64,000 nt of DNA from an uncultured Alphaproteobacteria bacterium (GTDB lineage Bacteria > Pseudomonadota > Alphaproteobacteria > Rhizobiales > Xanthobacteraceae): positions 76,926 to 140,925 of the forward strand of contig CAVXGN010000043.1 of NCBI GenBank assembly GCA_963761245.1. Direction: 5' to 3'. The notes under the pieces were generated by a model. It was not told where the DNA came from, searched no databases, and worked only from the letters and a program-made list of their open reading frames with translations. The translations under genes and the position numbers were made by a program. Shown here piece after piece: positions 2,451 through 51,403 of the stretch; positions within the stretch are counted from its first letter, which is position 1, and every line of letters begins with the position of its first letter.

Positions 2451-4081
2451 ATGTCACAGCCAACGCCGATGGAAGGCGAATTCGACTACATCGTGGTGGG
2501 CGCGGGCTCGGCAGGTTGCGTGCTCGCCAACCGGCTGTCGGCCGATGCATCGAAACGCGTGCTGCTGTTGGAAGCCGGCGGCCGCGACAACTGGATCTGG
2601 TTCCACATTCCCGTCGGCTATCTGTTTGCGATCGGCAATCCGCGCGCCGACTGGATGCTGAAGACAGAACCGGAACAGGGCCTCAACGGCCGCAGCCTCA
2701 ATTATCCGCGCGGCAAGGTGATCGGCGGCTCCTCCGCCATCAACGGCATGATCTACATGCGCGGTCAGGCCACCGACTACGACCAATGGCGGCAACTCGG
2801 ATCTGCCCGGCTGGTCGTGGGACGACGTGCGACCCTATTTTCGCAAGCACCTCGATCATTTTCTGCGCAGCGAGGAGCATGGTAGCGGCGGCGAATGGCG
2901 GGTCGAATATCCGCGGCTGTCGTGGGAAATCCTCGACGCCTTCCGCGCGGCGGCGATCCAATACGGCATTCCGGCGGTCAATGATTTCAATACCGGCGAC
3001 AACGAAGGCATCTGCTATTTCCACGTCAATCAGAAGTTTGGGCGGCGCTGGTCGGCGGCGCGCGGTTTTCTCAAGCCGGTCTTGCATCGGCAGAATCTTC
3101 GGCTCGAAACAAACTGCCTGGTCGAGGGCCTCACCTTCGACGGCAAGCGCGCCAGTGGCGTGCGCTGGCGGCAAAACGGCGCATCGCGCAGCGCGCGCTG
3201 CCGCGGCGAAGTGATCCTCGCCGCCGGCTCCATCGGCTCGCCGCATCTGTTGTTGTTGTCGGGCATCGGCCCGGCGGCGCAGCTCTCGCAGTTCGGCATC
3301 CCGGTGCTGCTCGACAAGCCCGGCGTCGGCGCCAACCTGCACGACCATCTGCAACTGCGCATGATCTACAAAGTGTCCGGCGTGAAGACGTTGAACATGC
3401 AATATGCGTCGATGATCGGCCGCCTCGGCATGGGGCTCGACTATGTTTTCCGCCGGCGCGGGCCGATGACCATGGCGCCCTCGCAGCTCGGCGCCTTCAC
3501 GCGCTCCGACCCGACGATGGACCGCGCCAATATCCAGTATCACGTGCAGCCGCTTTCGCTCGACAAGTTCGGCGAGCCGTTGCACCCGTTCCCGGCGTTT
3601 ACGGCAAGCGTCGCCAATATCCGGCCGACCAGCCGCGGCGCGCTCACCCTCAAATCCGCCGATCCCGCGCAGCCGCCGGCGATTGCGCCGAATTATCTGT
3701 CGACGCCGGAAGACCGCCGCGTCGCCGCCGAACTCGATCCGCGTCACGCGCAGGATCGTGGCGCAGCCGGCGCTGCGGAAATATGCGCCGGTCGAATTCC
3801 TGCCGGGCGCCTCGGCGCGCGACGATGACGAGGCCGCGCTGGAGCAGGCCGCCGGCGATATCGGCACCACGATTTTCCATCCCGTCGGCACCGCCCGCAT
3901 GGGCCGCGACGACGATGCGCGCGCGGTGGTCGATGCGCGTCTGCGCGTGATCGGCATTGAGGCGTTGCGCGTCGTGGACGCCTCCGTGATGCCGTCGATC
4001 ACCTCCGGCAATACCAACTCGCCGACCATGATGATCGCCGAGAAGGGCGCTGCGATGATCCGCGAGGATGGACGACGCTGA
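2451..4081 (+). CDS. GMC-family (choline dehydrogenase-like) oxidoreductase; apparent frameshifts near 2800 and 3730
   Basis: [44 protein letters not shown] and [25 protein letters not shown] across three ORFs. Confidence 0.9.
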
Positions 4082-4109
4082 TCAAACTGGGTCAATCAGG
4101 GGGCATCTC

Positions 4110-4679
4110 ATGAACATCGCAGCGCGGGTCAAAGGCATCCTGCTCGAGCCGAAGAATGAATGGCCGGCCATTGAACGTGAACCGGGCAACATTCGCTACC
4201 TGTTCACCCGCTATGTGGCGATCATGGCCGCGATTGCGCCAGTGTGCTGGTTCATCAGGGTCACGACGATCGGTTATGGGCCGGTCCGGGAAAGCTTCGT
4301 CATCGGGCTGATCAATGCCGTCACCAGCTACGTCCTGGCCCTGATCAGCGTCGTGGTCTTTGCCTATATCATCAATTTTCTGGCGGGGTTCTTCGGCGGC
4401 ACCAAGAGCATCGCAAATGCGATGAAGGTCGCGTCTTATGCGTTGACGGCGATTTGGGTCGCCGGCGTCTTCGGCCTCATTCCCTACTTGTCCTTCCTTG
4501 CGATGCTGGCGGGCTTCTACAGCCTGTATCTGCTGCACACGGGGCTTGCCGCACTGATGAAGCCGACGCCGGAAAGGGCAGTGATCTACACGTTTGTCGT
4601 CGTCGGCTGTGTGATGGCGATCGAGGCGCTCATGTTCGCGCCTGGCTTGCTGTGGCTGTCCGGGACACCGGCGCTGTAA
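4110..4679 (+). CDS. Yip1-domain membrane protein, copy a
   Basis: RVKGILLEPKNEWPAI start, several TM segments, YSLYLLHTGLAALMK; paralog of 4944..5513. Confidence 0.8.
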   Translation: MNIAARVKGILLEPKNEWPAIEREPGNIRYLFTRYVAIMAAIAPVCWFIRVTTIGYGPVRESFVIGLINAVTSYVLALISVVVFAYIINFLAGFFGGTKSIANAMKVASYALTAIWVAGVFGLIPYLSFLAMLAGFYSLYLLHTGLAALMKPTPERAVIYTFVVVGCVMAIEALMFAPGLLWLSGTPAL

Positions 4680-4685
4680 CCGCGG

Positions 4686-4730
4686 CTACGGCAGCGCTTT
4701 CAAATACCGGATCGGCCGGCCGGGTGCGAC
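4686..4730 (-). repeat. Extra copy of the last 15 codons (incl. stop) of the PDH-E1-like gene
   Basis: Translates VAPGRPIRYLKALP* versus IAPGRPIRHLKALP* at 5532-5576. Confidence 0.85.
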
Positions 4731-4735
4731 CATCG

Positions 4736-4813
4736 TCCGGCAACACCAACTCGCCGACCATGATGATCGCCGAGAAGGGCGCTGCGATGATCCGCGAGGA
4801 TCAGGCCCGTTGA
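4736..4813 (+). repeat. Extra copy of the GMC oxidoreductase 3' end
   Basis: [25 protein letters not shown] versus ...REDGRR* at 4004-4081; one silent change, then identical up to the last three codons. Confidence 0.95.
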
Positions 4814-4943: not shown

Positions 4944-5513
4944 ATGAACCTCGTCGAGCGCGCCAAGGCGATCATTCTCAGTCCCGGCACCGAATGGCCG
5001 GTTATCGCCAACGAGCCGAACGACGCGCGCGATCTGTTCGTGAACTATGTGGCGATCCTTGCCGCCATCCCGGCGGTTTGCGGTTTTATCGGCACCGCGC
5101 TGGTCGGCATCTCGATGACGGGCGTCGACACTTTCCGGGTCGGCATCGGCGCCGCGCTGGTGTCGGCGATCGTCGGCTACGTCCTGGCCTTTGTCGGCGT
5201 CTTTGTGCTGGCGCTGATCGTCGACGCGCTGGCGCCGAGCTTCGGCGGCAGCAAGGGCATGGACAACGCGCTCAAGCTCGTGGCCTATTCCGCCACGCCG
5301 TCGTGGTTATGCGGCGTTTTCTCGCTGATTCCCGCGCTCGGCTTCCTCGCCATCCTCGGCCTCTATTCGCTCTATCTGTTCTATGTCGGGCTGCCGGTGT
5401 TGATGAAGTCGCCGAAAGAGAAGACGCTGCTCTATGCCGTCGCCGTTTTGGTGGTCGGCATTGTCATCAGCCTGATCATCGGCTTCATCCAGGTAAGCTT
5501 AATCGGGCTTTAG
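4944..5513 (+). CDS. Yip1-domain membrane protein, copy b
   Basis: MNLVERAKAIILSPGTEWPVI...YSLYLFYVGLPVLMKSP; GGAGG RBS upstream. Confidence 0.85.
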   Translation: MNLVERAKAIILSPGTEWPVIANEPNDARDLFVNYVAILAAIPAVCGFIGTALVGISMTGVDTFRVGIGAALVSAIVGYVLAFVGVFVLALIVDALAPSFGGSKGMDNALKLVAYSATPSWLCGVFSLIPALGFLAILGLYSLYLFYVGLPVLMKSPKEKTLLYAVAVLVVGIVISLIIGFIQVSLIGL

Positions 5514-5531: not shown

Positions 5532-7983
5532 TTAAGGCAGCGCCTTCAAATGCCGGATCGGCCGGCCGGGCGCGATCGCCTGCGCCGCGGCGACAATGGC
5601 GTTGGCGTCGATGCCGTAGTGCCGATAGAGCTCGGCAAGCGATCCGGTCTGACCGAAATGCTCGACGCCGAGCGGGCGCGTGCGATGGCCGGCGACCGCG
5701 CCGAGCCAGCCCAGCGTCGCCGGATGCCCGTCGAGCACGCTGACGATGCCGCAATGGGCCGGCACGTCGGCAAGCAGCCGCTCGATGTGCGAGCGCGCAT
5801 GCACCAGCCCGCGCTCGCGCGCGCGCTGCGCGGCGGTCCAGCCGGCATTGAGCCGGTCGGCCGACGTGACCGCGAGCAAGCCGACGTCGCGCCGGTCCTC
5901 CGCCATCAGGCCGACGGCTTCGATCGCTTCCGGCGCGATGGCGCCGGTATAGGCCACGACCACTTGCGCGTTCGGCCCCGGCTTGCGCTGCCAATAGGCG
6001 CCGTCAACGATTTGCTGGCGCAGTTCGCCTGTCATCGGGCGCTCGATCTGCTCGATCGGCCGCGTCGATAGCCTGAGATAAACCGAGCCGCCGGTCTCGT
6101 CGCGCAGCCAGGTTCGCTCGGGAGCGCGGTCAGCAAAAGTGGGTACCGGTTTTGCGTCCGACCGCGCGACAAACGAAGAATCTTCCGCCGCGTCGCCATC
6201 CTTTTGGATATAGGCGAAGGCCCAGCCGAGAATGACGGCAAGCTCGTCGACATAGGCCGGCTCGAACGCCGCGAGCCCATCTTGCGCCAGCCCAATCAGC
6301 GGCTCGGCGATCGATTGGTGCGCGCCGCCTTCGCCGGCCAGCGTGATGCCGGACGGCGTCGCCGCCAGGATGAAGCGGGCGTCCTGGTAGCAGGCGTAAT
6401 TGAGCGCATCGAGCCCGCGCGCGATGAAGGGATCGTAGAGCGTTCCGATCGGCAGCAGCCGCTCGCCGTTGATGGTGTGCGAGAGGCCGAGCGCCGACAG
6501 CAGGATGAACAGGTTCATCTCGGCGATGCCGAGCTCGATGTGCTGGCCCTTGGGCGAGAACTCCCAATTGAACGTCGAGGGGATGCGTTCGCTCTTGAAG
6601 GTGTCGGCCATGGCCTCGCGCGCGAACAGCCCGCGCCGGTTGACCCACGGCCCGAGATTGGTGGAGACGGTGACGTCGGGCGACGTCGTGACGATGTGGC
6701 GCGTAAAGTCGTTGTCGGCGCGACCAAGCTCGTTGAGGATGGCGCCGAAGCCGGTCTGCGTCGAGGTCACGGCTTGGAAGCTTGCCGGCAATTCGGCCGG
6801 CACCTCGAGCGCCGGCGCCTTCAGCCGCCGTTCGCCGGCCGCGGCAAACGGCACCTGATCGAGAAACGACCGCAAGCGATCGGCGGGCAGCGTGAGCCCC
6901 TCGAACTTGTCCCATTCATGACCGGGACGCACGCTCATCGCCTGGCGGAAGGTCTCCATCTGTGCCGGCGTCATCAGGCCGGCATGGTTGTCCTTGTGGC
7001 CGGCGAAAGGCAGGCCAAAGCCCTTGACGGTATAGGCGATGAAGCAGGTCGGCTTATCATTGTCGGCGGCATGGAACGCTTCGAGCAGTGACGGCAAATC
7101 GTGCCCGCCGAGATTGTTCATCAAAGCGGCGAGTTCGTCGTCGGAGCGTTTATCAATCAGGCGCGAAACGTCGCCCTGATCGCCGATCTCGTCATTGAGC
7201 CGCTTGCGCCAGGCGGCGCCGCCGGCGAACACCAGCGCCGAATAGAGCTGGTTCGGACAATTGTCGATCCATTGCCGCAGCCTGTCGCCGCCCGGCTCCT
7301 TGAACGCAGCCTGTTGCAGCGAGCCGTATTTCAGGATCACCACGTCCCAGCCGAAATTCCTGAATAGCTGCTCGTAGCGCTGCCACAAGCCCTTCGCGCA
7401 CCACTGCGTCGAGGCTCTGCCGGTTATAGTCGACGATCCACCAGCAATTGCGCAGGCCCTGCTTCCAGCCTTCCAGGATCGCCTCGAAGATATTGCCTTC
7501 GTCGAGCTCGGCGTCGCCGACCAGCGCCACCATGCGGCCCTCAGGCCGCTCAAGCCCCCAGCCGTGAGCGCGCACATAATCTTGCGTCAGCGAGGAGAAC
7601 AAAGTCTGCGCGACGCCCAAGCCGACCGATCCGGTCGAGAAGTCGACGTCGTCTGCATCCTTGGTGCGCGAGGGGTAACTCTGCGCGCCCTTGTAGCCGC
7701 GGAAGGCCTCCATCCGCTCGCGCGTCTGCTTGCCGAGCAGATATTGGATGGCGTGGAAAATCGGCGAGGCATGCGGCTTCACCGCCACGCGATCCTGCGG
7801 CCGCAGCACCGCGAAATAGAGCGCGGTCATGATGGTGGAGAGCGAAGCGCTCGAGGCCTGATGGCCGCCGACCTTCAGCCCGTCATCGTTCTCGCGCAGG
7901 TGGTTGGCGTTGTGGATCATCCAGCTCGCCAGCCAGAGCACCTTCCTTTCCAGCTCGCGCAGGACGGTGATGTCGTCGCTCAT
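5532..7983 (-). CDS. Pyruvate dehydrogenase E1 (AceE-like)/transketolase-family TPP enzyme; apparent frameshift near 7390
   Basis: KVGGHQASSAS, FSTGSVGLG, GDAELDEG, NRQSLD, ELGIAEMN, GEGGAHQS, LGVEHFGQTG. Confidence 0.85.
6124..6180. repeat. RIME-like palindromic element inside the PDH-E1-like CDS, read in frame
   Basis: GCGCGGTC..GCAAAA-GTGGGTACCGG-TTTTGC..GACCGCGC inverted repeat; shares core AAAACCGGTACC..CTTTT with the intergenic element at 26233-26303. Confidence 0.75.
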
Positions 7984-18943: not shown

Positions 18944-18975
18944 CCCAAACGAAACGGCCGGCGTGACGCCGGTCG
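18944..18975. repeat. Direct repeat of a terminator-like hairpin (partner at 19905-19937)
   Basis: AAACGAAACGGCCGGCGTGACGC identical at 18947-18969 and 19909-19931. Confidence 0.8.
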
Positions 18976-19001
18976 CCGACACGTTCAATACTTTGGCCCG
19001 G

Positions 19002-19799
19002 TTAGCCCCGGCGCTGACGGCTCTCGCCGGACGTCGTCTGCTGCGCCTGATCCGCCCAAGCGAGGTGCTTGTAGTCGAAGCCGCTTTCGATGGTTGGCTT
19101 GACGATGGCGAAGAACGGCGAAACGTCGAAATCGCGCGGCGTGAACAACGAATGATGGCGGATGTGCAGGATTTCGCGGCGGCTTTCGTCATCGACGCGC
19201 TCCACCCGCGGCAGAATTGGATAGCGCACCGATTGGAATGCTTCCGCGATTAAGGTCGAGCAGATCGCGCGCGTCGGTTCTCCCGATCCGAGTGCGAGCA
19301 TGCGCCGGCGCCAGCGCGTCGGCACCGGCGGCTGCGGCAGAAAATAGCGCATGAGATCGACGATGTTCTTCAGATCGTAGGCATGGCCGATGTGCTCGAC
19401 CGCGAAGCGGATCACCGCGGCGCGGTCTTCCGGTGTCAGTCCGACCGGCCGGCAGATGCGCGTATTGTAGCTTGCGTATTTGGACATCGGCGAGGCGATG
19501 ACGCCCTGTCCGAGTTCGACCTCAACCAGCACCAGCGGCTCGCCGTCGCTCTCGCCGAGCTTGGCGGAGAGGCCGACATAGAGTGCGGCATGCGACCAGG
19601 TCGACTGGGTCAGAAAGCGGATCGTCGAGGAAATTTTTGTCGCGCTGCCTTCGATCAGCAGAACGTCGCAGGGCCGCAGGGTCATGGCGGTCAGTTCGGG
19701 CCGCGCAGCGGCGTAGGGCTCATAACCGCTGGTTGGCTTGGTGATTTGGCGCGCGATCAAATCGCCGAGCCAGTCGAGCGGTGTCCGGCGGTGTTTCAT
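19002..19799 (-). CDS. YiiX/YebB-like permuted papain-like (NlpC/P60) protein
   Basis: LRPCDVLL..TQSTWSHAALY, GHAYD, ICSTLIAEAF, LFTPRDFD. Confidence 0.8.
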   Translation of the reverse strand: MKHRRTPLDWLGDLIARQITKPTSGYEPYAAARPELTAMTLRPCDVLLIEGSATKISSTIRFLTQSTWSHAALYVGLSAKLGESDGEPLVLVEVELGQGVIASPMSKYASYNTRICRPVGLTPEDRAAVIRFAVEHIGHAYDLKNIVDLMRYFLPQPPVPTRWRRRMLALGSGEPTRAICSTLIAEAFQSVRYPILPRVERVDDESRREILHIRHHSLFTPRDFDVSPFFAIVKPTIESGFDYKHLAWADQAQQTTSGESRQRRG

Positions 19800-19965
19800 G
19801 CCGCAAGGCTAGCGCGCGCGGCGCCGAATCTGAACCCATATGCGCGTGAAGTGATAAGGAGAAGCGCGTTGCATGCCTGAGCCGGGTAGCCACGTCTTCC
19901 TTGGCCCAAAACGAAACGGCCGGCGTGACGCGGGCCGATCAATTTGCGCTCTTGGGCAGCAGCGC

Positions 19966-20076
19966 TTAGGAGCGGTCGTGGTCGGCCTTGTAGCGGCCTT
20001 CCTGCGGCACGCCGATGTAAGTGGCCTGCTTGTCCGATAGCTTGGACGGCTTCACCCCGATCTTATCGAGATGCAG
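19966..20076 (-). repeat. Extra copy of the ahcY 3' end (37 codons incl. stop), followed by a terminator-like hairpin
   Basis: [36 protein letters not shown] versus [36 protein letters not shown]; offset 1238 bp. Confidence 0.95.
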
Positions 20077-20197: not shown

Positions 20198-21061
20198 ATG
20201 GCCAACACACATGATGTCGACGGCCCAGGAGTCTTGGGAGACAGCCCGGTGGCGGATCCGGTGCCGTTTCGTGTAATTTGTGTCCTTGGTTTTCTGTTTT
20301 TTCTTGCCGCGCTTTTCATCTTTTACACGCTCGTCGCCACTTGGCCGGTGCCAGCGAGCAAGGGCGGCGGTTATGAGCCGGCCAATTGGCTTGGCCGCCA
20401 CCTCACTACGTTTTCGCCCGATGGCCGGCTTTTCATCATGGTCGCCGCGGCTGGTGCGCTCGGCAGCCTGATTCACACACTGACCTCCTTCGTTGACTAT
20501 GTCGGCAACCGCCGGCTGGCATTGAGCTGGGTTTGGTGGCTGTTGCTGCGCACGCCGATCGGCATAGCGCTGGCGCTAATGCTCTATCTGGTCCTGCGCG
20601 GCGGGCTCTTCTCGCTGCCGAGCAACGGGGCTGGGGCCGGCGTGAATAATGGTCTCAACCCGTACGGCTTCGCGGCGGTTGCCGCGATGGCCGGCATGTT
20701 TTCAAAGCAGGCGACCGACAAGCTGCGGGAGTTATTCGATACTCTTTTTCACACGACGCAGCCGGTTGATCGTGCTGATCCGTTGGCTCATGTGGGCCCG
20801 ACCATCTCCGCCGTGGAGCCAGCGAAGCTTACGGTCAACGATCAGACCAAAGTGCTGACGATCACCGGAAGCGGTTTCAAACCCAACTGCAAGGCGACCG
20901 TCAACGGTAGCCCGCGCAACCTTGAACGCGTGAGTGCCACGCAGATCAAACTCACCTTGGTGCCGGACGACGTGAAGGCGGCGGGCGACCTGCAAATCGT
21001 TGTCCAGAACCCGGAGCCTAAGGCAGCAAGCTCGAAGCCATTTTCAGTGAAAGTAGGGTGA
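20198..21061 (+). CDS. Membrane protein with a C-terminal IPT/TIG (Ig-like) domain
   Basis: TM helices with AGALGSLIH..YVGNR and AGMFSKQATDKLRELF; C-terminal PTISAVEP..LTITGSGF..IVVQNP; more A/T-rich codon usage than neighbours. Confidence 0.75.
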   Translation: MANTHDVDGPGVLGDSPVADPVPFRVICVLGFLFFLAALFIFYTLVATWPVPASKGGGYEPANWLGRHLTTFSPDGRLFIMVAAAGALGSLIHTLTSFVDYVGNRRLALSWVWWLLLRTPIGIALALMLYLVLRGGLFSLPSNGAGAGVNNGLNPYGFAAVAAMAGMFSKQATDKLRELFDTLFHTTQPVDRADPLAHVGPTISAVEPAKLTVNDQTKVLTITGSGFKPNCKATVNGSPRNLERVSATQIKLTLVPDDVKAAGDLQIVVQNPEPKAASSKPFSVKVG

Positions 21062-21184: not shown

Positions 21185-21203
21185 ATTTGCGATGCGCCGC
21201 CGC

Positions 21204-32423: not shown

Positions 32424-33653
32424 TCAGTACTTATTTCCGCTGGGCTGAGTGAAGACGTCGTCGCCGAGGCTCTTGAGCCCCTCTTGTCCGGCGTAGCCCA
32501 GATGTTCCAGATCGAAGAAATCTTCGATGCTTCTCAGCAGTGAATAGTGATTGTATGGCACCTCCGACATCGTGCCCTCTCTGATGTAGCGCGACACCAG
32601 GACCGCCCCGACGCGGCCGCCGCCCGGCCCGGCGACGCCCGGACCCTTGTCAATGTTGTCAAAGACCGTGTGTTCCTCGGGATTTATGTTCAGCCCAATT
32701 TGTTCGTCGCAGCAGGAGCTGACGTCGCCGCTTACAAGCTTATTCTTGAGGAGGTAGATATCGGCTTCGTCAAAGGTGACGATCAACAGGCCGTCACGCT
32801 TAAAGGCGGGAGAGGTCAAAATTTTCGGCACGTATTTCTGCGAGAACCTGTCGGCCGAGAGGAGGCCGCCCGGCTGACCGTCGACGCATGGCTCGTCGTG
32901 GCCATCGTGTCAGAGATTGGGAGTGATGAAGGCGTAGTTCGGCGTCGTAACGACGTTTTGCAGGTCCGTCGCCAAGGCCGAGAGATTGACCACATGGGCG
33001 GAACAATTGGCGGCGTCGTCGATGATCTTATGGAAATACATGAATGGGTTGTGACGGGTGGCATATTGATCGCCCTTGGCCGCGCTTTGCGCCTTGTCTT
33101 TCTCGCCGATCTCTGGATGGGCGCAGGCCGTACCACCGTCGCGGCTTGGATCATTACCCATGTCTTCCATGTATCCCTTCCAGGTCAGTCCTTCGGCTTC
33201 CAGCTGATTGACGATGGTAGGCACATTTTTGGGATAGACGCAGCCTTTTCCGCGGGCTTGGCCGTGTTCGCCAATTTCGCCGCGGCCTTGCCGATCCTTG
33301 GGCAGAAAATCTGCAAACTTCTTGTCGTCGTTGTGGCAGTCAGCTTGCGTGACGGGGTTGGGTGCCTGGCCGCTGATCAGTGCGATATAGTTGTCCAGGC
33401 TATTATGTCCGATCCCATAATAGTTCTTGAGCAAAGCCCCATTGCGAGCGAGCGCATTCAAATAAAGCGCGGGCGATTTTGTACCGAAGGTAATGTCGTA
33501 TCCTTCGTTCTCAAATAAGATGATGAACACATGCTTGGGCTTCGGTAGGGCTTCGGCGGCGGCCGTTGTCGGGACACACGCCAGGAAAGACGGCACGCTC
33601 AGGAGCGCAAACAGTGCTGTGACTAAACCGCTAAGTCTCCGCCCGTTTTTCAT
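32424..33653 (-). CDS. Exported phosphoesterase-family (acid phosphatase/phospholipase C-like) protein; apparent frameshifts near 32910 and 32830
   Basis: HVFIILFENE, HNSLDNYIALISG, WKGYME, YATRHNPF, FITPNL, IVTFDE, YNHYSLLRSIED. Confidence 0.85.
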
Positions 33654-33914
33654 GATCCCCCCCAACGCTGTTCGCCAGCAACGTGGCGCAAAAAACTATT
33701 TGACGGGACACACGTTCGAGCCGAACGCCTGATTCAGAAACAGTGCCAGGCGCAAGCCGGCGCCTGTCCGACAAAAGCGCAGGCGAGCCCGGCCGATAAC
33801 ACGAACGTTTTCACGGCACGATCCTCCCACATGGAGTAGTGTGCCAATCATATATGACAACTGCAAGATGTAGACGCGCTATGCGGCGGAATGACGCCGG
33901 TATTTGTCGTTTGT

Positions 33915-34137
33915 CGGCGTCGAGCCGCATCTCTTGAACCCGTTCAAGACCTGGAAGGACAAGGCCGAGTTCGACAAGACCGCGCGCGAACTGGTCGGCA
34001 TGTTCCAGAAAAAACTTCGCCAAGTACGAAGGCCACGTCACGCCCGACATCAAGGCGGCGGCGCCGGAAGTGCGCATCGCGGCGGAGTAGATTTGCGGTC
34101 GGAGAATTGAAAAAGGCGGCCCTTGCGGCCGCCTTTT
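33915..34137 (+). repeat. Extra copy of the pckA 3' end plus terminator
   Basis: Matches 32170-32391; [16 protein letters not shown]...EVRIAAE* and the same terminator. Confidence 0.97.
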
Positions 34138-34192
34138 ATATTTTGCCTAACTGTTTGCGCGCCGGTTGCCATTCGCTCTCAGCGCGGGACAA

Positions 34193-34400
34193 TCATTGAT
34201 TGTTCGACCTGGAGGAATTGAGATTGATGGCATTGTTCGTGGATGGGTTTGTCCCGCCCGACGTCCCGTCACGGTAAATATTCGATCTGGAGGTGTTGAG
34301 ATTTTTTGTCTTTTTCGTGGATGGGCTCGTTCCGCCCGAAGTCGTGTCGCGGTAGATGTTCGATCGGGAGGTGTTGAGATTGACGGCATTGGCGCTTGGT
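34193..34400 (-). other. Tandem 78-bp (26-aa) repeat peptide remnant with three NLN[T/S]SRSN cores
   Basis: Repeat units start at 34203, 34281 and 34359; minus-strand translation AVNLNTSRSNIYR..KNLNTSRSNIYR..AINLNSSRSNNQ*; no clean start codon. Confidence 0.6.
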
Positions 34401-34490
34401 TGTCGTGGCGCACAATTGCATATCAGGACAGTGCCCCTGTCGTACTTTCTCTGATATTTGTTCGCCGGGCGCACGAGGCGGGTTGTCACA

Positions 34491-35490
34491 ATGCGTAAAT
34501 TGAAGATCGGGCAGAACGGCGACGAAATCTCCGCGGCCGGGCTCGGCTGCATGGGCATGTCGGGCGGCTACGGTCCGGCCGACGACGCCGAAAGCATCGC
34601 CACCATTCACGCCGCGCTCGACGCCGGTGTGACCTTCCTCGACACCGGCGACTTCTACGGCATCGGCCACAACGAGATGCTGCTGGGCGAGGCGCTCAAA
34701 GGCGGCAAGCGTCAGCGCGCCTTCCTGTCGGTGAAATTCGGCGCCATGCGTTCACCCGACGGCGCCTATACCGGCTACGACCTGCGTCCGGCGGCGGTGA
34801 AGAATTTCCTGTCCTACACGTTGCGCCGGCTGCAGACCGATTACGTCGATCTTTATCAGCCCGCGCGCTACGACCACATGGTGCCGTTGGAAGATACGCT
34901 CGGCGCCATCGCCGACCTGGTGAAGGCGGGCTACGTGCGCCATATCGGCCAGTCGGAGGTCAATGCCAGGACCTTGCGCCGCGCTGCCGCGCTGCACAGC
35001 ATTGATGCGCTGCAGATCGAATATTCGCTGCTGAGCCGCGGCGTCGAAAGCGCCATCCTGCCGGCGCTGCGCGAATTGAAAATTCCGTTGGTCGCCTATG
35101 GCGTGCTCTCGCGCGGGCTGATCAGCGACGCAACGCTCAACGACGGTGCCGGCTCGGGCGAAATCCGCTCGCGCATGCCGCGCTTTTCCGCGCAGAATTT
35201 TCCGCGCAACCGGGCGCTGATCGAAGCGCTTGCCAAGATCGCCAAGGCGCGCGGCGTGAGCGTGGCGCAGCTTGCCTTTGCTTGGCTCGCCTCGCGTGGG
35301 CACGACATCGTGCCGCTGATCGGCGCGCGCCGGCGCGATCAACTGGCCGAGGCGCTGGCCGGTCTCAGCTCTCAAGCTGACCGAAGACGAACTGGCCGCC
35401 ATCGAGCAGGCGGCGCCGAAGGATGCCGCGGCCGGAGCCCGCTACGGTCCGGCGGCGATGAAGCATCTCGACAGCGAGCTATCGGCTTGA
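34491..35490 (+). CDS. Aldo/keto reductase; apparent frameshift near 35370
   Basis: GLGCMGMS, LDTGDFYG..HNE, LQIEYSL, AYGVLSRG. Confidence 0.9.
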
Positions 35491-35500
35491 GCCGCGGGCG

Positions 35501-36710
35501 CTAGCGCCCGCGCAGGCGCTCGATCAGCTCCACCGTCGGATAGGAATCCGCCGGCAGCCCGGTCTTAATCTGCGCCAATCGTATCGCGGCACGGGTGCCG
35601 GCGCCGACCTTGCCGTCGACGTCGCCGGCCTTGTAGCCGTGCTTATTCAACAGCGTCTGCAACTCCATCACCTGCGGCGTGGTCAGCGCCACCACAGTCT
35701 TGGCGCCCGCGTGATCGTAGGCCGGTGCGCCGGCCAGCCGCGTCGCGAAATAGGCGACGGTGGTGGAATAGACATAGGCCGAATTCCAGCCGAGGAAGGC
35801 CTGGAAATTGCGATAGGCGAGGAAGGCCGGTCCGTGCCGTCCCATCGGCAGGATCATCGAGGCTTGCATCTCATCGGCCGGCAGCTTGCCATGCGCGGCG
35901 CGCACGCCCCAGGCCACCCACTGCGAGCGCGGGTGTTGGATGGTCAGGTCGGCCTCCTGCCACGGCAGGTTGGCGCGGCACGCGCACTTCCTGCAGCCAC
36001 GGTTCGCCGCGATGCCAGCCCAGGTTGACCAGGAAGTTGGCGCCGGAGGCCATGGTGTCGGGAATGCTGTGGATCAGGTCGCGGCGGCCGTTGCCGTCGA
36101 AGTCGACCGCGTTCTTGTAGTAATCGCCGGCGGTGAACTGCAGGCCGCCGAATTCGCCCGCCCAGTCGCCGATCATCTCGCTCGCGCGCAGGTCGCCGCG
36201 CTGGATAATGCGCAAGGCGGCGAGCAATTGCGCGCGGAAGAAATCCGGGCGCCGGCAGTCATAGGCCAGCGTAGTGAGCGCGGTCAGGATTTTGTAGTTG
36301 CCGAAATTGGCGCCGAAGTCGCTCTCCAGTCCCCAGAAGGCGGTGAGCACCGGCGCCGGCACGCCGTATTTCTTTTCCACTTCGGCGAACAGCGCGTGGT
36401 ACTTCTTGATCCTGGCGAGACCGTTGGGGATGCGGCCGCCGCCCACCATGCGGTCGGCGAATTTCATGAAAGTTTGCTGGAACACGGCTTGGCCGTGGTC
36501 GCGGCGGATGATGACTGGATCGAAGGTCATGGCGGGGGAAGCTTCGGCGATGACCCGTTGCGAGATGCCTTGCGCGAGGGCCTCCTTCTTGAAGGCAGCC
36601 AGCCAGCTTTCGAAGCTGCCGGTATTGTGGCAACGGGCGGCGGCAAGCGCCTGCCCCGCCAGCATGCAGCCGAGCATGACCGCGGCGAATTTCAGTGCCA
36701 ATTTTCCCAT
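35501..36710 (-). CDS. MltB-like lytic murein transglycosylase with a PG-binding domain; apparent frameshift near 35975
   Basis: AFWGLESDFG, LAYDCRRPDFF, AVDFDGNGRRDL, DGKVGAGTRAAI. Confidence 0.88.
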
Positions 36711-38888: not shown

Positions 38889-40227
38889 CTAAAAATACCG
38901 CCACCAGACATAGACTTGGCTGATCGCCACCGACACCACCATCATCGGTGCCGCATAAAGCGTGTAGGTGACGAAACGAAACGGCACGCCGTTGCGGTCG
39001 GCGATGCCGGCCACGGTCAGATTGGCCGAGGCGCCGATCAGCGTGCCGTTGCCGCCGAGGCAGGCGCCGAGCGACAGGCACCACCACAGCGGCAGGATAT
39101 GCGCCTCGCCGCCGAACGACGGCGCCATGCTCTTGATCAGCGGAATCATGGTGGCGACGAACGGGATGTTGTCGACGATCGCCGACAGGAACGCCGAGGA
39201 CCACAGGATGGCATAGCCGGCCGTCGCCAAGTTGCCGCCGGTCGCCGCCACCAGCTTGTTGGCGAGCAGCGTGAGCAAGCCGCCGACGTCGACGCCGTGC
39301 ACCACCACGAACAGGCCGATGAAGAAGAAGATGGTGATCCACTCCACGTCGCCGAAGGTCTGGTGGATATTGTGCGCGGCTTTTTCGGCGTGATGCGACC
39401 AGTTATCGAGCAGCATCAGCACGGCGGCGCCGGAGAGCGCGATGGTGGCCGGCTCCAGGTGCAGCGGCCGCGCCAGCACGAAGGTGATCATCACCAGCGT
39501 GAGAATAGCGAGCGCCTGCTTGAGCAGCCGCCAGTCCTCGATGGACTCGGCTCGGATTCATCGCCATCACGCGCGCCTCGGCATCGTGCGAGGCGCGCAG
39601 ATCCTTGCCCCACAAAATGTGGATGATCAGCGCCTGCACCGCCATGACGATCAGGATCACCGGCGTGAGGTTATAGACGAAGTCGTTGAAGGCGAGCCCG
39701 ACCTGCGAGCCGATCAGGATGTTGGGCGGATCGCCGATCAAAGTGGCGGTGCCGCCGATATTGGAGGCCAGTATTTCCGCGAACAGATAGGGGTAAGCCG
39801 GCACTTTCAACGTGCTGCAGATCGCCAGCGTCACCGGAACGATCAGCAGCACGGTGGTGACATTGTCGAGAAAGGCCGACAGCACCGCTGTGGTGATCTG
39901 CAGGATGAACAAGATGCCGGCGGGATGCGCCTTGGCCGCTTTCGCCGACCAGATGGCCAGAAACTGGAACATGCCGGAGCGGCGCGAGATCGACACCAGG
40001 ATCATCATGCCGGTGAGCAGGCCGATGGTGTTGAAGTCGACGCCGTGGATCGCCTCTTCCTGGTCGAGCACGCCGACCAGGATCATCACGCCGGCGCCGA
40101 CCAGCGCGACGATCGCGCGGTTGACCTTTTCCGACATGATGGTGGCGTAGGTGATGGCCAGGATGCAGGTGGACACCCACATCGGACTAAGGCCGAAATA
40201 GACGTGCGATGCCGCGTGCGCGGTCAT
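38889..40227 (-). CDS. ArsB/NhaD (IT superfamily) transporter, copy 2; apparent frameshift near 39550
   Basis: SAFLDNVTT, SNIGGTATLIGDPPN, VDNIPFV, LGGNGTLIGASAN. Confidence 0.88.
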
Positions 40228-40349
40228 GGCCGAGCTTCCCCCAAGTTACCTGGGCGCTCAGCCTTCGCCGGCCTTTCGCACCCCTTGCGCCCCTATTTTA
40301 GCGGGCAGGAGGCTCAGGCAACGGCGTTGGGGAGTCAAGATGTTGAACG

Positions 40350-40455
40350 GTCATTCGGGGACGGCGCGTTAGCGCCGAACCCGGAATCCAGATTTCCATT
40401 TGGTGCTTGTTTCTGGATTCCGGGTTCGCTCGCTTTGCTCGCACCCCGGAATGAC
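40350..40455. repeat. REP doublet (GTCATTC..GGAATGAC family)
   Basis: AACCCGGAATCCAG/CTGGATTCCGGGTT inner inverted repeat; GTCATTC/GAATGAC ends. Confidence 0.8.
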
Positions 40456-40459
40456 AGAA

Positions 40460-41798
40460 CTAGAAATACCGCCACCAGACATAGACATTGCAGATGGCGA
40501 TGGAGACAACCGTCATCGGCGCGGCGTAGAGCGTGTAGGTCAAGAAACGGAACGGCACACCGTTGCGCTCGGAAATGCCGGCGACCGTCAGATTGGCCGA
40601 GGCGCCGACCAGCGTGCCGTTGCCGCCCAGGCAGGCGCCGAGCGACAGGCACCACCACAGCGGCATCGATCTGCTCGGGCCCGCCGAGCGACGGCGCCAT
40701 GTTCTTGATCAGCGGAATCATGGTGGCGACGAACGGGATATTGTCGACGATGGCCGACAGAAACGCCGAGGCCCACAGCACCGCGTAGCCCGTCGCTGCC
40801 AGGTTGCCGCCGGTCGCTTTCACCAGCTCGTTGGCGAGCAGGTGCAGCAGCCCGCCGACTTCGACGCCGTGCACCACGATAAACAGGCCGAGGAAGAAGA
40901 AGATGGTGATCCATTCCACGTCGCCGAAGGTGGAGTGGATATTGTGCGAGGCCTTCTCGGAATGATGCGCCCAGTTGTCGAGCAGCATCAGAAAGCCGGC
41001 GCCCAACAGCGCGATGGTGGCCGGCTCGAGATGCAGCGGCCGCGCCAGCACGAAAATCACCATCACCGCGGTCAGCACCGCCAGAGACTGCTTGAGCAGC
41101 CGTGGGTCCTCGATCGAGTCGGCCGGATTCATCGCCATGACGGCGGCTTCCGCCTCCGGCGTTGCCTTGAGTGCGCGGCCCCACAGGAAATGGATCATGA
41201 CGGTCTGCACCGCCAGAATGACCAGGATGATCGGTGCCAGGTGATAGATGAACTGGTTGAAATCGAGTCCGACCTGCGAGCCGATGATGATGTTGGGCGG
41301 ATCGCCGATCAACGTGGCGGTGCCGCCGATATTGGAGGCCATGATCTCGGCGAACAAATACGGGTAGGCTGGAACCTTGAGCGTATTGGTGATGGCGAGC
41401 GTCACCGGCACGATCAGCAGCACGGTCGTGACGTTGTCGAGCAAGGCCGACAACACCGCGGTGGCGAGCTGCAACAACAGCATGATGCCGGCCGGATGTG
41501 CCTTGGCCGCCCGCGCCGACCAGATCGCGACATAGCCGAACATGCCGGAGCGGCGCGAGATCGAGACCAGGATCATCATGCCGGTGAGCAGGCCGAGCGT
41601 GTTCCAGTCGACGCCCTTGATCGCTTCTTCCTGCTCCAGCACGCCGACCACGATCATGACGCTGGCGCCGATCAACGCCACGATCGCGCGATTGACCTTC
41701 TCCGTCATGATGACGGCATAGGTGATCGCCAGGATGCAGGTGGACACCCACATCGCGTTGAGCCCAAAATAGACGTGAGATACCGCGTGCGCGGTCAT
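40460..41798 (-). CDS. ArsB/NhaD (IT superfamily) transporter, copy 1; apparent frameshift near 40668
   Basis: Same motifs as copy 2; both start MTAHA.SHVYFGL and end YVWWRYF*. Confidence 0.88.
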
Positions 41799-41921
41799 AC
41801 CCGGCTTGCCCCCAAGTGAGGGCGCACGCTTAAGCAACCGGCAGGCCCTGTCAACGTATTGCGTCCGCGGCGTAAATTCGCACCGCCCGGCAGCAAGGGC
41901 GAACAATCAAGGAGAGGGAAC

Positions 41922-45748: not shown

Positions 45749-48704
45749 TCAGTGCGCCTCGTCCCAATTGTCGGCGGCGCGGGCGTCGACCTGCAGCGGC
45801 ACATTCAGCGCCACCGCCGGGTGCGGCGCCTCCTGCATCACGCTCTTCACCACGGGGATCGTCGCCTCGACTTCCTCGACCGGCACTTCGAAGATCAGTT
45901 CGTCGTGCACCTGCAAGAGCATCTGCGCGCGCAGCTTGGCCTTCTCCAGCTCCGGCTCGATGCGGATCATGGCGCGGCGGATGATGTCGGCGGCCGAGCC
46001 TTGCAGGCGCGCATTGATGGCCGCGCGCTCGTTGAAGGCGCGGATCGAGGGTTTGAGTTCTTGATCTCCGGGTAGTGGCACTTGCGCCCGAACAGCGTGT
46101 CCACATAGCCGTGCTGCGCGGCAGAACTCGCGCGTCTCGTCCATGTAGTCGCGGATGCCGGGGAAGCGCTCGAAATATTTGCGGATATAGGCGCCGGCCT
46201 CGTTCTTATCGATGCCGAGTTGCGCCGCCAGCCCGAACGCCGAGATGCCGTAGATGATGCCGAAATTGATCGCCTTGGCGCGCCGGCGCACTTCGCTCGG
46301 CATGTCCTTCACCGGCACCCCGAACATTTCCGACGCCGTCATGGCGTGGATGTCGACGCCGTCCTGGAACGCCTTGCGCAGCGCCGGCACCTCGGCGACT
46401 TCCGACAGCAGCCGCAGTTCGATTTGTGAGTAGTCGGCCGACACCAGCTTCATGCCGGGCGAGGCGACGAAGGCCTTCCTGATCTTGCGGCCGTCCTCGG
46501 TGCGCACCGGGATGTTCTGCAAATTCGGCTCCGACGACGACAGCCGCCCGGTCGAGGTCGAGGCCAGCGCGTAAGCACGTATGCACGCGGTGCGTGGTCG
46601 GGTTCACGTAAGTCGGCAGCGCTTCCGTGTAGGTCGAGCGCAGCTTCGACACCTGCCGCCAGTCGAGGATCTTGCGCGGCAATTCGTGGCCTTGCTCGGC
46701 CAGGTCTTCCAGCGCGCGCGCGCCGGTCGACCATTGCCCGGTCTTGGTCTTGGTACCGCCCGGCAGATTCATCTTGCCGAATAGAATGTCGCCGATCTGC
46801 TTCGGTGAGCCCGGATTGAGCGGCTCGCCGGCCAGCGTCTTGATCTCGTCCTCCAGCCGGCCCTGTTCCTGCGCGAAATCGCCGGACAGCCGCGACAGCA
46901 CCTGGCGGTCGATGGTGATGCCGCGCCGCTCCATGCGCGCCAGCACCGTCGGCATCGCGCGCTCCAGCGTCTCGTAGACGGTGGTGACATGCTCGGCCGG
47001 CAGCCGCGGCTTCAGCGCGTCCCACAAGCGTAGCGTCACGTCGGCGTCCTCGGCGGCGTATTCGGTCGCCTTCTCGATGGTCACGCAATCGAAGCTCACT
47101 TGCGATTTGCCGGTGCCGGCGACGTGCTGGAAATGGATGGTGTCGTGGTCGAGCCAGCGCTTGGCGAGATCGTCCATGCCGTGGCCGCCCTTGCCGGCGT
47201 CGAGCACGTAGGAGATCAGCATGGTGTCGTCGTAGCCGCGGACTTCGATGCCGCGCTGGGCGAACACCAGCCAGTCGTATTTCATGTTCTGCGCGACCTT
47301 GAGCACGCTTGTCTTCGAGCAGTGGCTTGAGCGAGGCGAAGCGCCTCGGTCTTCCGGAATCTGGTCCGCGCACAGCTTGGCCTCCGGCGCGAACAGGTCG
47401 GAGCCGCCTTCGCCGCCGCCGTCGCGGTGGCCGAGCGGCACATAGCAGGCTTCGTTGGGCGCCACCGCCAGCGAGAAGCCGCACAGGCCCGCCTGCATGG
47501 CATCGAGGCTGGTGGTCTCGGTGTCGACCGCCACCACGCCCGTCTCGTGCGCGCGCGCGATCCATTGCTGCAGGCGCTCGAGCGTGCGCACGCATTCGTA
47601 TTTGCTGCGGTCAATCTTGGCGGCGCGCGCCTTCTCCGCCCGCGCGGCGGCGAGCGAGATGGGGGTGAGGGCGCCGGCCGTTTCTTTTTCCCTCCCCCTG
47701 AAAGGGGGAGGGTGGCCGCCGCTGGCGCGGCGCTCACCCTCCCCTTGCAGGGGAGGGATAGCGGGAATCGACACTAGCTTCGCATCGGCCTCGACCGGCT
47801 GAGGCGTCGATGCCGCTCTTCTCGGCAATGCGCCGTGTGATGGTCGAGAATTCCATCGCCTTGAGGAAAGCGATCAGGTGCTTGTAGTCGGGCTCGTGCA
47901 CCGCAAGCTCGATCGACCGCGACGTCGAGCGGCACGTTCTGGTCGAGCGTGACCAATCGTTTGGACAGGCGTGCGATCTCGGCATTGTCGATCAGCGACT
48001 GCCGGCGCTTGTCCTGCTTGATCTCGCTCGCGCGCTTGAGCAGCGTTTCGAGATCGCCATATTCGCCGATCAATTGCGCCGCGGTTTTGACGCCGATGCC
48101 GGGCACGCCCGGCACGTTGTCGGTGGAATCGCCGATCAGCGCCTGCACCTCGATCACCTTCTCGGGGCCGACGCCGAATTTCTCGATCACCTCATCGCGG
48201 CCGATGCGGCGGTCTTTCATGGTGTCGTACATGATGACGCCGTTGCCGACGAGCTGCATCAGGTCCTTGTCGGACGACACGATGGTGGTGGTCGCTTTGG
48301 CCTCGCAGGCAAGCCGCGCATAAGTGGCGATCAGGTCGTCGGCCTCGAAGCCTTGCCTGTTCTAGGCAAGGGATTTCGAAGGCGTGCACCGCCTCGCGGA
48401 TGAGCGGGAATTGCGGAATGAGATCGGCGGGCGCCTCCGGCCGGTGCGCCTTGTAGTCGGGATAGAAATCGCTGCGGAAGGTCTTTTCCGACTTGTCGAA
48501 CACCACGGCGAGATGGGTCGGCTTTTCATCCGGCTTCATCTCGGCCAGCAGCTTCCACAGCATGTTGCAGAAGCCGAGCACGGCATTGACCTGCAAGCCG
48601 TCCGACTTGCGGGTGAGCGGCGGCAGCGCGTGATAGGCGCGGAAAATGTAGGAGGAGCCGTCCACTAGAAAGAGGTGGTCACCTTTTTTGAGCGGGCGCG
48701 CGGC
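45749..48704 (-). CDS. polA: DNA polymerase I, downstream copy: intact C-terminus, lacks about 40 N-terminal aa, several apparent frameshifts
   Basis: VDGSSYIFRAYHA, DTETT, TGRLSSSEPNLQNIP, SADYSQIELR, KAINFGIIYG, LQVHDEL, NWDEAH*. Confidence 0.9.
47690..47757. repeat. CCCTCCCC..GGGGAGGG palindromic doublet inside polA (second copy at 50272-50338)
   Basis: Two hairpins of the same family as the intergenic element at 55605-55723. Confidence 0.85.
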
Positions 48705-51403
48705 AGAACTCGCGCGTCTCGTCCATGTAGTCGCGGATGCCGGGAAAGCGTTCGAAGTATTTGCGGATATAGGCGCCAGCCTCGTTCTTATCGATGCCGA
48801 GTTGCGCGGCGAGACCGAACGCCGAGATGCCGTAGATGATGCCGAAATTGATCGCCTTGGCGCGCCGGCGCACTTCGCTCGGCATGTCTTTCACCGGCAC
48901 CCCGAACATTTCCGACGCCGTCATGGCGTGGATGTCGACGCCATCCTGGAACGCCTTGCGCAGCGCCGGCACCTCGGCGACTTCCGACAGCAGGCGCAGT
49001 TCGATTTGTGAGTAGTCGGCCGACACCAGCTTCATGCCGGGCGAGGCGACGAAGGCCTTCCTGATCTTGCGGCCGTCCTCGGTGCGCACCGGGATATTCT
49101 GCAAATTCGGCTCCGACGACGACAGGCGCCCGGTCGAGGTCGAGGCCAGCGCGTAGCTCGTATGCACGCGGTGCGTGGTTGGGTTCACGTAAGTCGGCAG
49201 CGCTTCGGTGTAGGTCGAGCGCAGCTTCGACACCTGCCGCCAGTCGAGGATCTTGCGCGGCAATTCGTGGCCCTGCTCGGCCAGGTCTTCCAGCGCGCGC
49301 GCGCCGGTCGACCATTGCCCGGTCTTGGTCTTGGTACCGCCCGGCAGATTCATCTTGCCGAACAAAATGTCGCCGATCTGCTTCGGTGAGCCCGGATTGA
49401 GCGGCTCGCCGGCCAGCGTCTTGATCTCGTCCTCCAGCCGGCCCTGTTCCTGCGCGAAATCGCCGGACAGCCGCGACAGCACCTGGCGGTCGATGGTGAT
49501 GCCGCGCCGCTCCATGCGCGCCAGCACCGTCGGCATCGCGCGCTCCAGAGTCTCGTAGACGGTGGTGACATGCTCGGCCGGCAGCCGCGGCTTCAGCGCG
49601 TCCCACAAGCGTAGCGTCACGTCGGCGTCCTCGGCGGCGTATTCGGTCGCCTTCTCGATGGTCACGCAATCGAAGCTCACTTGCGATTTGCCGGTGCCGG
49701 CGACGTGCTGGAAATGGATGGTGTCGTGGTCGAGCCAGCGCTTGGCAAGATCGTCCATGCCGTGGCCGCCTTTGCCGGCGTCGAGCACGTAGGAGATCAG
49801 CATGGTGTCGTCGTAGCCGCGGACGTCGATGCCGCGCTGAGCGAACACCAGCCAGTCGTATTTCATGTTCTGTGCGACCTTGAGCACCGCCTTGTCTTCC
49901 AGCAATGGCTTGAGCAGGCGAAGCGCGTCCGCTTCCGGAATCTGGTCCGCGCAGAGCTTGGCCTCCGGCGCGAAAAGGTCGGAGCCGCCCGCCGACCCGC
50001 CGTCGCGGTGGCCGAGCGGCACATAGCAGGCTTCGTTAGGCGCCACCGCCAGCGAGAAGCCGCACAGGCCCGCCTGCATGGCATCGAGGCTGGTGGTCTC
50101 GGTGTCGACCGCCACCACGCCCGTCTCGTGCGCGCGCGCGATCCATTGCTGCAGCCGCTCGAGCGTGCGCACGCATTCGTATTTGCTGCGGTCGATCTTG
50201 GCGGCGCGCGCCTTCTCCGCCCGCGCGGCGGCGAGCGAGATGGGGGTGAGGGCGCCGGCCGTTTCTTTTTTCCCTCCCCCTGAAAGGGGGAGGGTGGCCG
50301 CCGCTGGCGCGGCGCCACCCTCCCCTTGCAGGGGAGGGATAGCGGGAATCGACACTAGCTTCGCATCGGCCTCGACCGGCTGAGGCGTCGATGCCGCTCT
50401 TCTCGGCAATGCGCCGTGTGATGGTCGAGAATTCCATCGCCTTGAGGAAAGCGATCAGGTGCTTGTAGTCGGGCTCGTGCACCGCAAGCTGATCGACCGC
50501 GACGTCGAGCGGGACGTTTTGGTCGAGCGTGACCAATCGTTTGGACAGGCGTGCGATCTCGGCATTGTCGATCAGCGACTGCCGGCGCTTGTCCTGCTTG
50601 ATTTCGCTCGCGCGCTTGAGCAGCGTTTCGAGATCGCCATATTCGCCGATCAATTGCGCCGCGGTTTTGACGCCGATGCCGGGCACGCCCGGCACGTTGT
50701 CGGTGGAATCGCCGATCAGCGCCTGCACCTCGATCACCTTCTCGGGGCCGACGCCGAATTTCTCGATCACCTCATCGCGGCCGATGCGGCGGTCTTTCAT
50801 GGTGTCGTACATGATGACGCCGTTGCCGACGAGCTGCATCAGGTCCTTGTCGGACGACACGATGGTGGTGGTCGCTTTGGCCTCGCAGGCAAGCCGCGCA
50901 TAGGTCGCGATCAGGTCGTCGGCCTCGTAGCCTTGCTGCTCCAGGCAGGGGATCTGGAAGGCGTGCACCGCCTCGCGGATCAGCGGGAATTGCGGAATGA
51001 GATCGGCGGGCGCCTCCGGCCGGTGCGCCTTGTAGTCGGGATAGAAATCGCTGCGGAAGGTCTTTTCCGATTTGTCGAACACCACCGCCAGATGGGTCGG
51101 CTTTTCATCCGGCTTCATCTCGGCCAGCAGCTTCCACAACATGTTGCAGAAGCCGAGCACGGCATTGACCTGCAAGCCGTCCGACTTGCGGGTGAGCGGC
51201 GGCAGCGCGTGATAGGCGCGGAAAATGTAGGAGGAGCCGTCCACCAAAAAGAGGTGGTCACCTTTTTTCAGCGGCCGCGCGGCCGGGTTCGCAGATGCGG
51301 CTGCGCTTTTGCTCGCAGGCTTGGCGGTCGGCTTGGCCGCGGCTTTCGGCGCGGCTTTGGCCGCAGGTTTGGCCTTGCTCTTGGATTTGGCGGTTGCTGG
51401 CAT
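48698..51403 (-). CDS. polA: DNA polymerase I, upstream copy: native start, truncated at ...DETREFCR and missing about 120 C-terminal aa
   Basis: ORFs 50036..51403 and 48679..50409; ends out of frame at the duplication junction. Confidence 0.85.

Follow-up and report, generated by a model that had tools for sequence, protein, structure and literature searches.

What kind of event places an accessory gene beside a core gene and then repeats the end of that core gene on the far side of it? The question is raised by a 64,000-nucleotide stretch (the window; positions 76926-140925 of contig C43) of a soil Pseudolabrys metagenome-assembled genome (MAG), here called G000, in which parts of a GMC oxidoreductase gene, ahcY, pckA and polA are each present as direct repeats. 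We favor, with a probability of about 55%, the explanation that DNA from related Pseudolabrys lineages entered these loci by additive, duplicative homologous integration and left the repeats as its footprints. For the loci that carry additional genes (cargo), integrase-free, homology-anchored additive capture appears to be the best reading of the sequence.

The repeats were located by self-BLAST of the window with E-values from 1e-8 to 0, and are present in the assembly far beyond chance. This alignment recovered every repeat listed in the original prediction, an earlier note on this DNA, at GMC and a neighboring transketolase / pyruvate dehydrogenase E1 (PDH-E1)-like gene, at ahcY (including a 962-bp terminator repeat), at pckA and at polA. 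It also bore out the claim that at three loci, GMC/Yip1, ahcY and pckA, a repeat of the core gene's 3' end, stop or terminator included, brackets an accessory gene, with offsets of 0.7-1.7 kb. As an outgroup for polarity we used an independent MAG, G118, which is ~93% identical to G000 and collinear with it over the entire window. The comparison agrees with the predicted additive insertion from related lineages, since G118 lacks the Yip1-A, phosphoesterase and polA events described below and the displaced pckA copy is the native allele.

Added genes between two copies of a core-gene end

The features at pckA are the following.

30710-32402, plus strand: intact pckA with its terminator; positions 32170-32402 (last 178 coding bp plus terminator) are copy 1 of the repeat
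32424-33914, minus strand: phosphoesterase (PF04185) cargo gene, including about 260 bp of its own upstream region
33915-34148, plus strand: displaced pckA 3' end and terminator, copy 2 of the repeat
34458-35504, plus strand: aldo-keto reductase gene, the ancestral downstream neighbor of pckA

The two copies of the pckA end and terminator (32170-32402 and 33915-34148) are 94.9% identical at an offset of 1745 bp, and six of the eight substitutions between them fall at codon position 3. In G118, the aldo-keto reductase gene follows pckA after 81 bp, and the 1745 bp that hold the phosphoesterase and the pckA remnant are missing, indicating that both were added in the G000 lineage. The phosphoesterase gene, which has one in-frame stop near 32885 and a G+C content of ~0.58, is rare in the genus, with matches in 4 of 200 other genomes (G176, G099, G108 and G162). 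All four carry it near pckA, about 0.1-2.7 kb from the 3' end, and each has a single pckA end, which is the donor-type layout that the original prediction had proposed to look for. G176 and G099 are collinear with positions 32100-33572 of the window at 70-74% identity.

Comparison of the two pckA ends with G118 revealed which of them is native. The distal copy matches G118 at five synonymous states where the in-gene copy differs, suggesting that the resident end was displaced to the distal position and that the gene now ends in imported sequence; a 1-bp insertion is among the private changes of the distal copy. In G176, G108 and G162, the phosphoesterase is not flanked by a repeat. The only self-match is a 74-bp repeat around the gene in G099, which was set aside as a candidate attachment (att) site because by eye it is palindromic and resembles a repetitive extragenic palindrome (REP). 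In the interval from the pckA remnant to the aldo-keto reductase gene, a 78-bp unit is tandemly repeated in slightly more than two copies (34203-34381, about 80% identical). Across the genus, both the interval between pckA and a lytic transglycosylase (SLT) gene and the interval downstream of ahcY vary.

A more complex array lies downstream of ahcY, encoding S-adenosylhomocysteine hydrolase; ahcY and the IPT/TIG gene were identified by Pfam.

21204-22640, minus strand: intact ahcY
21090-21140, minus strand: ahcY 3'-end remnant 1, strongly decayed (78%), offset 115
20198-21061, plus strand: IPT/TIG-domain cargo gene, on the strand opposite to ahcY
19963-20076, minus strand: ahcY 3'-end remnant 2, 37 codons and the stop
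18944-19937, minus strand: peptidase C92 gene (19002-19799) with its terminator-hairpin bracket, also in G118

Remnant 2 (19963-20076) is 89.5% identical to the ahcY end at 21201-21314, at an offset of 1238 bp. The differences between them (six at third, four at second and one at first codon positions) show no codon-position bias, so that this remnant looks decayed by non-synonymous change. Farther out, a ~30-bp terminator-hairpin repeat (about 18947-18975 and 19909-19937, offset 962) surrounds the peptidase C92 gene. The whole array, consisting of peptidase C92, remnant, TIG gene, remnant and ahcY, is present in G118, where the repeat is 116 bp long and 87.9% identical. Its occurrence in an independent assembly indicates that the array is genuine and older than the split of the two lineages. 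The distance from the ahcY end to the next conserved gene is 109-147 bp in G013 and G005, compared with 2.3 kb in G000. The IPT/TIG gene was found in only one other genome of 200, G118, in the identical place (93% amino acid identity), and no donor layout for it was found among these genomes.

The third cargo-bearing locus lies between the GMC oxidoreductase gene and the E1-like gene, with both Yip1 genes recognized by Pfam.

2378-4081, plus strand: GMC oxidoreductase gene, split over three frames, with Pfam domains GMC_oxred_N and GMC_oxred_C on two frames
4110-4679, plus strand: Yip1-A, the added cassette gene
4687-4801, no strand: novel joint, made up of a 43-bp E1-like 3'-end fragment (4687-4729), ~6 bp of filler and GMC copy 2 (4736-4801)
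4944-5513, plus strand: Yip1-B, in the ancestral slot between GMC and E1
5532-7577, minus strand: transketolase / PDH-E1-like gene, running toward the Yip1 genes; the 43-bp fragment comes from its 3' end (5533-5575)

Here two repeats are interleaved. The last 66 bp of the GMC gene (4004-4069, copy 1) recur at 4736-4801 (copy 2) with 98.5% identity and an offset of 732 bp, and the E1-like 3' end (5533-5575) recurs at 4687-4729 with 91% identity, about 6 unassigned bases before GMC copy 2. G118 has the order GMC-Yip1B-E1; it matches both GMC copies with a 66-bp overlap and is missing 4070-4735, from which we take the Yip1-A unit (4070-4735) to be an addition in the G000 lineage. The 63 other genus genomes that carry Yip1 each have just one copy. 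Among 5.8 billion proteins, Yip1-A has no relative above 64% identity, and no donor layout for it was found in that search. A related observation comes from G103, another species, in which a 50-bp E1-like 3'-end fragment (82% identical; 2080-2129 versus 2665-2713 of locus L045) directly follows Yip1, ~530 bp before the true gene end; it is a gene-end remnant at the same locus in a second lineage.

The polA tandem and the quality of the assembly

The fourth locus differs from the others in its anatomy.

45749-48704, minus strand: polA copy A with the unique 3' tail, lacking the first ~40 codons and the start codon; four frameshifts
48698-51403, minus strand: polA copy B with the native start; one frameshift; cut at polymerase-domain position 264 of 381

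The repeat (46116-48704 versus 48698-51283) is 97.5% identical over 2594 bp at an offset of 2582 bp; frameshifts were counted against the PolA of a relative. The repeated unit is the first 2.58 kb of the gene, its 5' 86%, in cargo-free tandem, and polA accordingly does not fit the capture of a core-gene end that had been proposed for it. The upstream copy B enters copy A out of frame at the 7-bp sequence GCGCGGC, which is present at all three unit boundaries. Two junctions had been predicted to fall on microhomologies of 7-9 bp; this one does so, and the second was not confirmed. Because polA is single in G118, the tandem is an addition in the G000 lineage. At the amino-terminal end of PolA (51283-51403, minus strand), a ~40-residue Lys/Ala/Pro-rich, histone-H1-like extension precedes the 5'-3' exonuclease domain.

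Forty-seven of the 54 substitutions between the polA copies (87%) are at codon position 3, an excess at synonymous sites that had been predicted and is found at pckA as well. The copies are 2.4% apart and each is ~7.5% from G118. This bias and divergence indicate that they are two natural conspecific alleles rather than sequencing noise. The indels between them are mostly single bases outside homopolymers. Such random indels do not fit a short-read assembly origin of the tandem, and a de Bruijn bubble or scaffolding of contig ends overlapping by k-1 is excluded by mismatches 8 bp and 47 bp from the unit ends. Chimeras of the kind produced by multiple displacement amplification were considered unlikely, given that self-BLAST found no sizeable inverted repeats in the window and that the copies are different alleles.

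The polA tandem and the Yip1 unit might instead have begun as microhomology-mediated tandem duplications in situ, one copy of which was later overwritten by two-sided recombination. Spontaneous tandem duplications are frequent in bacteria, the polA boundaries all carry the microhomology, and GMC end, Yip1 and E1 end form a clean tandem in the Yip1 unit. However, this course of events needs two rare events at one place while an unstable duplication persists, and it leaves unexplained the single-flank repeats with foreign cargo at pckA, ahcY and, elsewhere in the genome, purH and a CBS protein gene. In addition, the Yip1-A protein is only 45% identical to Yip1-B, yet the flanking GMC ends are the same at 65 of 66 bp. 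We therefore regard duplication in situ as improbable.

A second alternative is that the structures specific to G000, above all the polA tandem, are assembly artefacts, in which a chimeric read or a wrong graph path serialized two alleles of co-occurring conspecific strains, or their haplotypes with and without an insertion. The G000 MAG (4.9 Mb in 56 contigs), assigned to Pseudolabrys from the names of related proteins, has a completeness of 86.9% and a contamination of 3.1%, and direct evidence that its consensus is error-prone comes from rpoC (G000:C28:103514-107816), which is broken by a frameshift near 105200 and by an in-frame TAG at 105849. Genes for GMC, SLT, a DAO oxidoreductase, one CitMHS copy and a PMT_2 glycosyltransferase are also broken. 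Coding-like open reading frames (ORFs) have a mean length of 271 aa and cover 0.75 of G000, compared with 315 aa and 0.92 in the one-contig Pseudolabrys genome G079. The base-level consensus is thus unreliable, and frame breaks in G000 should not be taken as biology. An artefact would also account for polA copies that differ as conspecific alleles do with no intact polA present, for the four frameshifts of the full-length polA copy versus one, as expected from polishing with few reads, and for the absence of the G000-specific structures from G118 and all other relatives examined.

Several observations nevertheless argue against an artefact, which we consider unlikely. The joints are novel adjacencies not contained in an assembly-graph bubble, and the 7-bp microhomology at the polA joint suggests recombination or a polymerase event and not an artefact of alignment. 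Although variation between strains should affect the entire genome, polA is the only large tandem of near-identical alleles in the 4.9 Mb of G000, which disfavors systematic stacking of haplotypes by the assembler, since many tandems would then be expected. The same architecture is seen in G118 (at ahcY) and in G079, and the phosphoesterase insert is lower-G+C DNA collinear with the pckA neighborhood of other species.

Searches of public sequence data for the joints gave limited returns. In a word search of public runs, the best run contained 0.23 of the sampled words. Four runs yielded only short Logan contigs, which came from relatives or low-coverage populations. A 678-nt Logan contig from a soil run matches 33255-33932 with four differences and extends 18 nt past the joint of the phosphoesterase and the pckA remnant, which is a hint at most. 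The exact patterns of this joint and of the polA joint had no match in metagenome contigs of the Joint Genome Institute (JGI), an uninformative outcome, as that collection may not include the species at all. Exact-protein look-ups for Yip1-A, Yip1-B and HPr returned no record.

Further cases and site-specific recombination

Similar insertions occur elsewhere in G000, with at least seven further cases at lysK, purH and genes for a CBS protein, an OmpR-type regulator, an MR_MLE enzyme, an Fe-S protein and an AMP-ligase. The G+C content of every one of these inserts (0.52-0.63) is below the genome mean of 0.635, and the purH and CBS insertions are missing from G118, G005 and G013. The largest cargo-bearing example of the layout is at G000:C18:46485-51205 (L067), where a short-chain dehydrogenase gene has its 3' two-thirds (~585 bp, 96-99% identical) repeated 4.3 kb downstream, with a DctM/NMT1 transporter pair enclosed.

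In G079, of which 800 kb was sampled for repeats, a second copy of the polA 3' end (213 bp, 97.7% identical) lies 917 bp downstream, and the two copies enclose a 167-aa ORF on the opposite strand. In G178 and G183, which have single polA ends, the closest two homologues of this ORF (78% and 73%) are located 1-2 kb downstream of polA; as with pckA and the phosphoesterase in G176, G099, G108 and G162, anchor and cargo are contiguous there with no duplication. A carbonic anhydrase gene end in G079 is also repeated, 303 bp downstream. Separately, at G079:C1:3477031-3480030 (L105), a 77-bp tRNA-gene repeat (98.7% identical) surrounds a 2.9-kb islet that contains only a molybdopterin dehydrogenase gene, with no integrase ORF seen.

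Other repeats in G000 have a different character. A CitMHS pair in the window (38889-40246 and 40460-41817, 83% nucleotide identity, downstream copy frameshifted; region 38889-41906) was rejected as a fifth capture because it is an old paralog pair, with both copies in G005, one in G013 and one in G002. A dispersed repeat of ~105 bp on contigs C17 and C21 (L056:4880-4990 and L059:257-372) recurs dozens of times in G005, G013 and G118 (78-91% identity), and looks like a genus family similar to miniature inverted-repeat transposable elements or REPs. Tandem arrays were seen at G000:C19:140179-141350 (87-bp unit, about 13 copies, 98-99%) and, over several kb, at G000:C32:8783-12306 (units of ~110-220 bp, 70-94%).

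Direct repeats of a gene's 3' end that restore the gene are the classic signature of genomic islands, raising the possibility that the brackets are attL/attR sites of miniature or decayed site-specific elements resembling cis-mobilizable elements (CIMEs), with tyrosine recombinases lost or acting in trans. The tRNA-gene repeat around the 2.9-kb islet of G079, the 13 PF00589 matches in G000 and the stacked ahcY remnants, which resemble tandem accretion at an att site, are consistent with such elements. In contrast, Pfam assigned the bracketed ORFs to Yip1, an IPT/TIG protein, peptidase C92 and a PF04185 phosphoesterase and found no recombinase or transposase among ORFs in the window brackets, and the 13 PF00589 matches all lie outside the window, with none adjacent to the other islets. 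The brackets involve at least ten different protein genes, each of them once. Local duplication of the pckA end was seen in 1 of 187 genomes with a match (G000 only) and of the polA end in 1 of 123 (G079 only), with no reuse of an att position across the genus seen in either set. The inner repeat edges have no obvious common motif, and the phosphoesterase in G176, G108 and G162 looks like an ordinary neighbor of pckA. The original claim that the window brackets contain no integrase or transposase is upheld, with no obvious sign of a shared att core, and CIME-like elements seem distinctly unlikely.

The same data bear on the suggestion of a dedicated system with an integron-like outcome, which was overstated in view of how sporadic the events are at the pckA and polA ends. 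The window repeats are gene ends rather than attC-like hairpins, and the window has no tyrosine recombinase. The original prediction had also proposed to look for gene transfer agent (GTA) or competence genes elsewhere in the genome; no match to the Rhodobacter capsulatus GTA (RcGTA) markers TIGR02218 and PF13550 was found in the MAG, which is 87% complete, and ComEC is present, but neither result decides the route of DNA entry.

A proposed route of capture and its known counterparts

We propose that a donor fragment consisting of a conserved gene end and the donor's adjoining accessory gene would pair with the resident gene through the shared end, while the other end of the fragment would be joined illegitimately. 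This could occur through circularization by end-joining and then a single RecA crossover of the Campbell type, or through homology-facilitated illegitimate recombination (HFIR) with the illegitimate joint upstream of the anchor's end; the two routes yield the same product and thus are not separable here. The live gene would retain a complete 3' end, now imported, with the cargo next to it and the resident end displaced downstream as a dead remnant. Repeated events could have built the ahcY array. The Yip1-A unit may reflect the same event, with only 43 bp of mismatched homology at the far end of the donor fragment, and the polA tandem would be a cargo-free version, in which a conspecific allele was joined at the 7-bp microhomology. 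A sign that fits this scheme is the direct duplication of the homology arm around added DNA, seen at the cargo-bearing loci. The illegitimate joint has 7 bp of microhomology at polA and ~6 unassigned bases at Yip1; scoring pckA in this way would require the true donor. The anatomy of the loci, their absence from the nearest relative, the donor-like arrangements in other genomes and the identity of the native copy are direct observations, whereas we infer how the DNA entered and recombined, and also that the three junctions specific to G000 are real.

Several points weigh against additive capture. The G000 assembly is poor, as the rpoC frameshift and TAG and the low ORF coverage relative to G079 show. 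Read-level support for the joints comes down to the one Logan contig that gets 18 nt across, short of our 31-nt rule. The 4-5 events in 64 kb are an unexplained local excess over the ~1 per 350-500 kb found elsewhere. Two other G000 inserts contain transposase-like ORFs. The pckA copies share 106 identical bp that include a terminator unlike that of G118, which would require a conspecific donor or later gene conversion. The alleles specific to G000 are about as diverged as co-occurring conspecific strains (2.4% at polA, 1.5% at the GMC end). Finally, no intact polA exists as assembled, which is hard to accept for a dominant genotype; we give roughly even odds that the tandem represents a mis-join or a minority variant and not the dominant genotype.

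More tentatively, Pseudolabrys, and perhaps many soil bacteria that recombine, could regularly gain genes by one-ended homologous capture, with gene ends serving as anchors and arrays building up without recombinases; this is possible, though we would not presume it. If true, the remnants could be used genome-wide as dated, polarized records of single transfer events. Two-sided homologous replacement, the usual explanation of gene gain at integrase-free hotspots, erases its own traces, but duplicative one-sided events keep the displaced end, from which direction, boundaries, imported allele and rough age can be read. If reads confirm the junctions, this would provide a simple genomic signature for the rate in nature of illegitimate-plus-homologous gene addition, a pathway so far known mainly from engineered substrates. 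As a practical warning, structures like the polA tandem in error-prone long-read MAGs should not be taken at face value.

Literature searches found nothing specific on natural examples of such events or on duplication artefacts in long-read MAGs, but several known systems share features with the loci described here. HFIR is known in Acinetobacter and Streptococcus pneumoniae. The insertion of recircularized linear DNA by a recA-dependent single crossover was described in Escherichia coli, with 109-950 bp of arm sequence duplicated in 56 of 60 clones compared with four true HFIR events (PMC3240628). Like the loci in the window, these events have one homologous anchor, one illegitimate joint and no site-specific recombinase, and a direct duplication of the anchor, with arms of about 0.1-1 kb, surrounds the added DNA. 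They differ in being laboratory events with engineered substrates, whereas the loci here are natural footprints whose donors are related genomes carrying the anchor's own neighbor.

Integration hotspots between core genes, including the minimal mobile elements of Neisseria and those treated by Oliveira, Touchon and Rocha in 2017, are reportedly turned over by flanking homologous recombination. As in the window, accessory cassettes lie between conserved genes and are moved by core-gene homology with no integrase; however, two-crossover replacement leaves no duplicated end, whereas here the old end (at Yip1, the old allele) is kept. Tyrosine-recombinase islands and CIMEs integrate in the 3' ends of tRNA or protein genes, and they share with the present loci a target 3'-end direct repeat that brackets the insert, an incoming copy that restores the gene and stacked remnants. 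Unlike those elements, the loci described here have no integrase and no reused core site, and their donor-like cargo lacks flanking repeats.

Orphan C-terminal modules of rhs and cdiA are displaced downstream of the main gene. There, as in the window, recombination takes place in a conserved part of the gene, the old 3' end is pushed downstream (together with a companion gene in rhs/cdiA) and arrays result, but rhs and cdiA are toxin-immunity loci under diversifying selection, whereas the anchors here are housekeeping genes with unrelated cargo. Set beside these systems, nothing suggests a dedicated or integron-like system, and on the reading favored here the cargo-bearing loci represent a known recombination outcome, occurring sporadically and preserved as a natural footprint.

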